This document shows positions 42,847 through 42,990 of a stretch of DNA of 64,000 bases, one piece after another. The stretch lies in assembly GCF_988243305.1 (NCBI RefSeq), contig NZ_OZ547136.1; one strand, written 5' to 3'. A model generated the notes under the pieces. That model made no database searches. It saw only the letters and a program-made list of their open reading frames with translations, and was not told the origin of the DNA. Position 1 is the stretch's first letter; every line of letters starts with the position of its first letter. Made by a program: the position numbers and the translations under genes.

Positions 42847-42990
42847 CCCCTCACCCCGGCCCTCTCCCCAAAGGGGCGAGGGAGAAAGGCGGTGCATACT
42901 TTCCCACCGAGCGAAGTTGCAAACCGACACGGCACCTGGATACCACGCCGATCGGTCCCCTCTCCCTTTGGGAGAGGGTTAGGGTGAGGG
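42847..42990. repeat. G-rich imperfect-palindrome intergenic repeat (two inverted copies), ugpA-ugpB spacer
   Basis: cccctcaccccggccctctccccaaaggggcgaggg ... cccctctccctttgggagagggttagggtgaggg; the same core recurs at ~62127-62171. Confidence 0.6.

Follow-up and report, generated by a model that had tools for sequence, protein, structure and literature searches.

What are the G-rich palindromes that lie between ugpB and ugpA and recur between zntA and tusA, and could a pair of them affect the ugp operon in which it is placed? Both questions are addressed here in a 64-kb stretch of DNA, referred to below as the window. When compared to NC_000913.3 (3557533-3610547), the window exhibited 95.8-98.1% identity over collinear blocks; it represents an E. 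coli lineage other than K-12. The gene labels given in a preliminary description of this DNA were upheld: ugpA and ugpB border the first locus (Table 1), and the convergent genes zntA (stop codon at 62099-62101) and tusA (stop codon at 62203-62205) flank the second.

Identity of the G-rich palindromes

Within the 64-kb window, the 20-nt core GGAGAGGGTTAGGGTGAGGG was found exactly at 42971-42990 (+) and 62151-62170 (+) and with three mismatches at 42848-42867 (-), and the same search returned no match in any of 100 dinucleotide-preserving shuffles, compared to three in the real window. The recurrence of the core at the ugp and zntA-tusA loci and its inverted partner near 42847, both pointed out in the preliminary description, were thereby confirmed, and GATCGGTC, described there as shared upstream of the recurring core, is present at both loci. 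A repeat search additionally delineated a 42-nt inverted repeat with arms at 42840-42881 and 42957-42998, which are 74% complementary and separated by 75 nt, together with a perfect local hairpin of 9 bp (CCCTCTCCC/GGGAGAGGG) at 42958-42978.

The TMECO pattern published by Holder et al. (2015, PMC4666352) reads CCCTCNCCC-N3-6-GGGNGAGGG-N3-GGGNGAGGG. A regular expression of this pattern, with one stem mismatch allowed, identified exactly three sites in the window, corresponding to the three units listed in Table 1; both ugp units fit the pattern exactly, and the zntA-tusA unit carries one mismatch in the C-arm. Holder et al. (PMC4666352) equate TMECO with BoxC and with the PIT element of Hoyne & Maher, and the TMECO/BoxC equivalence adopted here rests on that study, which also distinguishes types A (TTA) and B (CCG). 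In the window, the second loop is TTA in two units and CCG in one, the ugp pair being composed of one A and one B unit and the zntA-tusA unit being of type A. The 21-nt cores of HPG1/HPG2, GGGAGAGGGTTAGGGTGAGGG and GGGAGAGGGCCGGGGTGAGGG (Kaplan et al. 2016, PMC5100583), are exactly the cores of the window units as well, and that paper draws no link to BoxC. The earlier label "possibly boxC-like" was correct: the published BoxC/PIT/TMECO pattern was matched and the elements are the same as HPG1/HPG2.

Individual copies could also be traced to K-12. The window type B unit together with the next G (42847) is identical to K-12 TMECO no. 3 over all 36 nt, and the zntA-tusA unit is orthologous to a K-12 copy catalogued twice, as TMECO no. 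16 (PMC4666352) and as HPG1 no. 40 (PMC5100583), relative to which its C-arm carries an additional C-to-T substitution. TMECO no. 16 is located within the zntA-tusA spacer of NC_000913.3, a record in which no repeat_region annotation is listed at either the ugp or the zntA-tusA locus. For MG1655, 23 copies are given, all intergenic, with five sites formed by inverted pairs of one A and one B unit each (PMC4666352); all three window copies are intergenic, and 20 K-12 copies from 14 loci were confirmed at their published coordinates. The flank consensus ..G.GC.CG..CGGTC, from a stretch of about 20 nt on the 5' side of type A units (15 type A copies), and the type B flank consensus GCaCc..TTTTCT are both common to the window and K-12 copies. 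When the conserved flank is added to the core, the unit reaches approximately 50-56 nt, i.e., the length quoted for BoxC (56 in the literature and 50 as re-detected; PMC2267715). Each unit of about 56 nt consists of a conserved 5' flank of about 20 nt and a C/G hairpin of 9-10 bp, followed by the second loop of 3 nt and, as the third arm, a G-rich repeat of arm 2.

Table 1. Coordinates in the window of the ugp and zntA-tusA features considered in this work.
Feature	Coordinates	Strand	Evidence
ugpA, downstream cistron	41936..42823	-	
ugpB, upstream cistron, periplasmic binding protein	42999..44315	-	
ugpB-ugpA intercistronic spacer, BoxC-pair allele, 175 nt	42824..42998	-	folding; allele counts
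75 nt separating the two BoxC units, 5' flanks included; single-copy	42883..42957	.	blastn
BoxC/TMECO type A unit, perfect: CCCTCTCCC-TTT-GGGAGAGGG-TTA-GGGTGAGGG	42958..42990	+	regex, exact core, 9-bp hairpin
5' flank of ugp type A unit, conserved: ccacGCCGATCGGTC	42943..42957	+	column consensus
BoxC/TMECO type B unit, one stem mismatch: CCCTCGCCCC-TTT-GGGGAGAGGG-CCG-GGGTGAGGG	42848..42882	-	regex; PMC4666352 Table 1
5' flank of type B unit, conserved: GCACCGCCTTTCT; family consensus GCaCc..TTTTCT	42883..42895	-	column consensus
zntA-tusA BoxC/TMECO type A unit: CCCTCGCTCC-TCT-GGGGAGAGGG-TTA-GGGTGAGGG	62136..62170	+	regex; PMC4666352, PMC5100583 tables
5' flank of zntA-tusA unit, conserved: GAGCGCGATCGGTC	62122..62135	+	
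Locus-specific hairpin ACCGATCGC / GCGATCGGT, 5' flank of zntA-tusA unit and its upstream complement	62105..62136	-	terminator scan

A chance similarity, or a misread classical REP/BIME, could appeal to the G+C richness and palindromy of these sequences and to nothing further. It is contradicted by the shuffles, by a permissive regular-expression search for REP words (GCCGGATG..., CCGGATAAG..., GTAGGCC...) without a match in 42824-42998 and 62102-62202, and by the K-12 REP spacer, which contains REP consensus words and shows no alignment to the window spacer. This explanation was consequently ruled out, its probability being negligible, and the earlier statement that the family is distinct from classical REP stands. 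The sequence of BoxC is unrelated to that of REP/BIME elements and lacks a GTAG/GCCGGATG-type consensus, and its third arm adds a potential for triplex or G4 formation. With BoxC/PIT/TMECO, by comparison, the agreement extends to the sequence pattern, both loop types, the inverted pairing of A with B, the exclusively intergenic placement and the number of copies. The three window sequences are thus almost certainly copies of BoxC (= PIT, TMECO, HPG1/HPG2), a family already known, described in the 1990s and re-characterised between 2000 and 2016. With a unit of about 56 nt and sequence identity to BoxC, neither ERIC/IRU (127 bp) nor RSA (152 bp) needs to be invoked.

The arrangement of the pair differs from most of those in K-12. 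The ugp units stand head-to-head around a 75-nt single-copy insert, whereas four of the five K-12 TMECO pairs are joined tail-to-tail by linkers of about 16-29 nt, lldD-trmL being the one that shares the head-to-head layout of the ugp pair. A linker of about 29 nt beginning with GAACAGGCCAGCACTGGTGCGAA is common to K-12 tail-to-tail BoxC pairs, and the rc(A)/B head-to-head junction of K-12 yagA-yagE (GACTGCACCGAGCCATCTTTTCC) is near-identical to that of the Enterobacter cloacae ugp spacer (GACTGCACGGAGCCGTCTTTTCT), an unrelated locus in another genus. Judging from these junctions, BoxC seems to possess conserved linkers similar to those of BIMEs.

Copy number and spread of BoxC

As to whether the core might be limited to the two loci, a family search with the 42-nt consensus against 5,426 complete E. 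coli genomes located it at 88,463 places, with at least one in 5,425 of the genomes (median 18, range 1-32 per genome). PMC4666352 gives 1-29 TMECO copies per E. coli genome and 143 for Enterobacter asburiae LF7a. Associations with plasmids and with phages were considered and rejected: the E. coli matches labelled as plasmid were mostly situated on chromosome-size records or on replicons of very large size (0.37-4.9 Mb in length, apart from one record of 18 kb), and the sole phage matches came from two odd Campylobacter phage records. In the latter, phages A18a and A11a (MG065686.1, MG065691.1), the BoxC matches of 46-52 nt show 96-100% identity and may represent enterobacterial DNA within the assemblies. 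BoxC matches were also observed in 26 Azospirillum replicons, with at most 10 places each. Among them, plasmid p2 of Azospirillum argentinense Az39, an alphaproteobacterial replicon of 70% G+C, bears a perfect type A TMECO (CCCTCTCCCCTCTGGGGAGAGGGTTAGGGTGAGGG) at 20008-20042 and a partial inverted copy close by.

As short, non-coding inverted doublets dispersed between genes, with a copy number varying by strain, BoxC pairs resemble REPINs and MITEs, but the ugp doublet in its entirety is not a repeat. We know of no cognate RAYT transposase for BoxC and, more generally, of no transposase or target-site duplication that goes with it.

Two alleles of the ugpB-ugpA spacer

At the ugp locus, the BoxC units form a head-to-head inverted A+B pair. 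The type A unit has its G-rich tail on the ugpB side, 8 nt short of the stop codon of that gene, and the ugp mRNA contains the C-rich complement of this unit; the type B unit, whose mRNA-sense strand is the G-rich one, stops 24 nt short of the ugpA AUG. The preliminary description had implicitly treated the window as K-12-like, an assumption that fails here: the 97-nt K-12 ugpB-ugpA spacer holds an inverted REP pair instead, without any alignment to the window spacer, so that the entire spacer is replaced. Among the 5,426 complete E. coli genomes, the BoxC pair (175 nt) was present in 317 (~6%) and the REP pair (97 nt) in 5,105 (~94%), and the spacer is essentially biallelic in this species. 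Over the spacer, strain CFSAN061763 is 100% identical to the window. A third variant was observed in a record titled E. coli SCPM-O-B-8794 (L018), whose UgpA protein is 100% identical to that of the window, with only 94.7% identity at the DNA level, and whose spacer carries a REP pair similar to that of Citrobacter youngae. No paper was found in a literature search for ugpA, ugpB and REP together, and no mention of ugp was found in the accessible portion of the PMC4666352 supplement; the finding of a BoxC pair here in place of the REP pair usual in the E. coli ugpB-ugpA spacer can modestly be called mildly new.

The 75-nt interior gave one blastn match per genome, in the identical 317 genomes. 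Since this interior is single-copy, the ugp pair is not one repeated composite, and the whole 160-nt A...B block was ruled out as a single MITE-like repeat. No target-site duplication was evident. The adjacent 600 nt of coding flanks are 96.5-97% identical to K-12, the bins bordering the spacer matching at 54-58 of 60 positions, and the divergence of the ugp region from K-12 is no greater than elsewhere in the window; the same flanks are only about 85% identical to those of Kluyvera, Enterobacter and Pseudocitrobacter. With flanks that resemble E. coli as far as the borders of the spacer, a recent arrival of the BoxC spacer together with flanking DNA from another genus was ruled out.

Other differences between the window and K-12 lie outside the spacer. 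The window lacks IS1E and has its own segments at 6163-16820, 44500-45412, and 51060-52002. Between glpD and glgP, a chaperone-usher fimbrial operon not present in K-12 occupies 6494-16339 on the minus strand; it encodes Fimbrial, PapD, and Usher domains, and its usher gene is interrupted by an IS element with an rve-family transposase (12536-13426). Near ugpB, the homology to K-12 ends at 44499, and the ugpB-livF interval contains an ORF of 248 aa (44548-45294, minus strand) that has TPR repeats as well as hydrophobic segments at its N-terminus and is likewise not in K-12. The panZ-livJ intergenic region comprises about 943 nt (51060-52002) in place of the 184 nt of K-12. Regarding the zntA-tusA spacer, about 10% of the E. 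coli genomes have no full-length match; some of the matches that are not full-length span approximately 450-750 bp, compared to 301 in the query, and some include a hypothetical ORF.

A scan for UgpA relatives with one genome per species covered at least 80 loci, with Salmonella, E. fergusonii, and Klebsiella, among others, left out. Among the matches listed, spacers with an rc(A)...B pair ordered and oriented like that of the window belong to a Pseudocitrobacter MAG (L020), Pluralibacter (L025), and Kluyvera (L028), as well as to Superficieibacter (L032), isolate RIT691 (L033), and Enterobacter cloacae (L057); the C-rich tail starts 8-14 nt past the ugpB stop in these spacers, and degenerate BoxC forms are found in L029 and L043. 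Also among the matches listed, a REP pair occupies the spacer in E. albertii, three Citrobacter species, Pseudocitrobacter faecalis, Pseudescherichia, and others, and more distant Enterobacterales carry a plain G+C-rich hairpin, often followed by a T-run. The ugpA genes of L020 (BoxC) and L021 (REP) are 95% identical and their spacers are of different types, which indicates switching between close relatives; the spacer type has switched between close relatives at least twice, within E. coli and within Pseudocitrobacter. In a Leclercia adecarboxylata MAG (L030, 1043-1203), a type A-like BoxC unit is nested between two REPs, in the loop, and this spacer looks like a hybrid or an intermediate of the two types. 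The tails of the A and B units covary, with GGGAGAGGG in both units of L025 and L033 and GGGTGAGGG in both elsewhere, a pattern that could reflect species-specific variants of the repeat, not compensation.

These observations bear on the possibility that BoxC is a selfish or neutral passenger, non-autonomous and possibly REPIN- or MITE-like, for which the spacer is a permissive landing site and which has no effect on ugp. The copy number of 1-32 per E. coli genome agrees with such a passenger, as do the presence/absence and replacement polymorphism at the ugp and zntA-tusA loci and the Leclercia unit enclosed by a REP pair. Published functional tests were also negative: Hoyne & Maher 2002, as cited in PMC4666352, found PIT elements to be inactive as promoters and as terminators and to have no effect in vivo. 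Against a mobile element of this kind stand the lack of a known transposase, target-site duplication or terminal repeat, the single-copy interior, owing to which the pair is not one mobile composite, and the rarity of BoxC units on true plasmids and phages. Furthermore, the orientation and the short distance from the ugpB stop are constant in seven taxa, and a hairpin is present even in spacers with neither REP nor BoxC. Overall, a passenger without effect is conceivable and deserves serious attention, but we hold it to be rather doubtful.

Structure of the spacer and its candidate role in the ugp mRNA

In the mRNA sense (minus strand), the window spacer has a predicted MFE of -87.3 kcal/mol (z = -5.0), and none of 200 shuffles was as stable; the predicted stem, in which rc(A) is paired with B, is long and interrupted, at about 35 bp. 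The K-12 REP spacer reaches -50 kcal/mol (z = -6.2). In BoxC and REP spacers alike, the predicted stem starts about 8-10 nt past the ugpB stop, and neither is followed by a U-run. Among the matches listed, 37 of the 46 Enterobacterales ugpB-ugpA spacers that were folded gave z <= -2. Any palindromic repeat yields a strong folding z-score, so these folds are no proof of selection.

Scans for other signals revealed little at the ugp locus. No site matching the intrinsic terminator consensus was present on either strand of 42600-43200, no match to the promoter consensus was found in the ugp spacer, and an Rfam scan of 42300-43500 with a permissive E-value returned only sub-threshold chance matches, such as whalefall-1 at 17.7 bits against a gathering threshold of 37. 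At the zntA-tusA locus, the hairpin at 62105-62136 is terminator-like on the tusA strand (one site against 0.3 expected), as a consensus match only, and this site is made by the flank hairpin and not by the BoxC hairpin.

When considering the DNA itself, the search for canonical G4 motifs (G3+N1-7 x4; core GGGAGAGGG(TTA|CCG)GGGTGAGGG) identified the units at 42847-42869 (-), 42970-42990 (+), and 62149-62171 (+). The type B unit places a canonical G4 in the ugp mRNA, and the G-rich strand of the type A unit is the template strand. Four such motifs exist in the 64-kb window, the fourth, GGGTGAGGGAAAATGGGAGATGGGG at 44466-44490 (+), being situated about 150 nt upstream of ugpB, just within the K-12 breakpoint, and not being a BoxC unit. 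That three of the four are BoxC units is compatible with a non-B structure acting at the DNA level, i.e., a G-rich-strand triplex or a G4/hairpin switch that would stall replication or repair and cause instability, or would modulate transcription. The literature points the same way in part: the isolated strand of the consensus forms a triplex in vitro by CD and NMR, variability around TMECO loci exceeds that at control sites (both PMC4666352), and hairpin and G4 forms are supported by CD. The ugp and zntA-tusA loci are, moreover, polymorphic among strains. However, according to PMC4666352, a triplex signal was absent from the double-stranded form and DMS footprinting in vivo revealed no protection, the footprinted copy being TMECO no. 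3, to which the window type B unit is identical in sequence. Repeat turnover predicts an equal repeat-associated variability, and the ugp spacer is essentially biallelic instead of decaying in many ways. We therefore regard a DNA-level role of this kind as improbable. Neither this explanation nor a passenger origin is mutually exclusive with an RNA role, and both are compatible with it.

In the RNA model, the ugp BoxC pair would act like REP, as an intercistronic RNA stem-loop. The units would have no coding, promoter, or terminator role. Within the ugp transcript, pairing would join the C-rich rc(A), 8 nt past the ugpB stop, to the G-rich B, 24 nt before the ugpA AUG, in a very stable stem-loop without a U-run. 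Such a stem-loop would be a barrier to 3'-to-5' exonucleases and would stabilise the ugpB segment relative to ugpAECQ. It could possibly also modulate ugpB termination and the initiation at ugpA, rather than ending transcription. As the stem lies no more than 15 nt from the stop codon, termination may be affected too, a point for which we draw on work on REP and stop-codon proximity said to be that of Liang, Rudd & Deutscher in 2015. The precedent for REP where a binding-protein gene meets a permease gene (malE-malF, hisJ-hisQ) reportedly goes back to Newbury et al. in 1987. The likeness to REP/BIME includes a site just past a binding-protein gene, a strong inverted-pair RNA stem-loop without a U-run, and the filling of one and the same spacer by either repeat, depending on the strain. 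The effect on polarity or on the stability of the ugp mRNA that the preliminary description had suggested is plausible as a model, with the stable fold in its favour and the missing terminator consensus and the negative tests on PIT elements against it, and a REP-like action of the pair is put forward tentatively, as a possibility that falls somewhat short of an even chance. Taken as one explanation, with the RNA mechanism as its tentative part, the identity of the repeats and the history of the locus are considered highly probable.

Against the RNA model speak the negative results published for PIT elements and for in vivo DMS footprinting, and also the disposition of the family. According to PMC4666352 and PMC5100583, BoxC copies face either way with respect to the genes around them, without bias, and many are situated upstream of a gene or in the interval of a convergent pair, so that BoxC at large is unlikely to have a general RNA role. 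In K-12, BoxC is also present in pstA-pstB (L015) and downstream of phnP (L016), so that, with ugp here, three Pho-regulon transport operons have BoxC in their interior or at their end, the distance from the stop of the upstream cistron to the rc(A) unit being 8-19 nt in pst and ugp. This pattern was spotted post hoc, and the placement may be a coincidence. It is also conceivable, albeit unlikely, that the REP pair and the BoxC A+B pair are old interchangeable structure cassettes, with selection keeping a strong stem-loop past ugpB, whichever family supplies it.

For the family, the naming question is closed, the G-rich palindromes being BoxC/PIT/TMECO. A single spacer holding either a REP or a BoxC pair, with E. 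coli-like flanks and recurring across genera, offers a clean natural experiment at the RNA level. If the reading as interchangeable cassettes is true, this would be the first REP-like RNA function for BoxC, and ugp would provide a natural allele-swap system for tests of BoxC.
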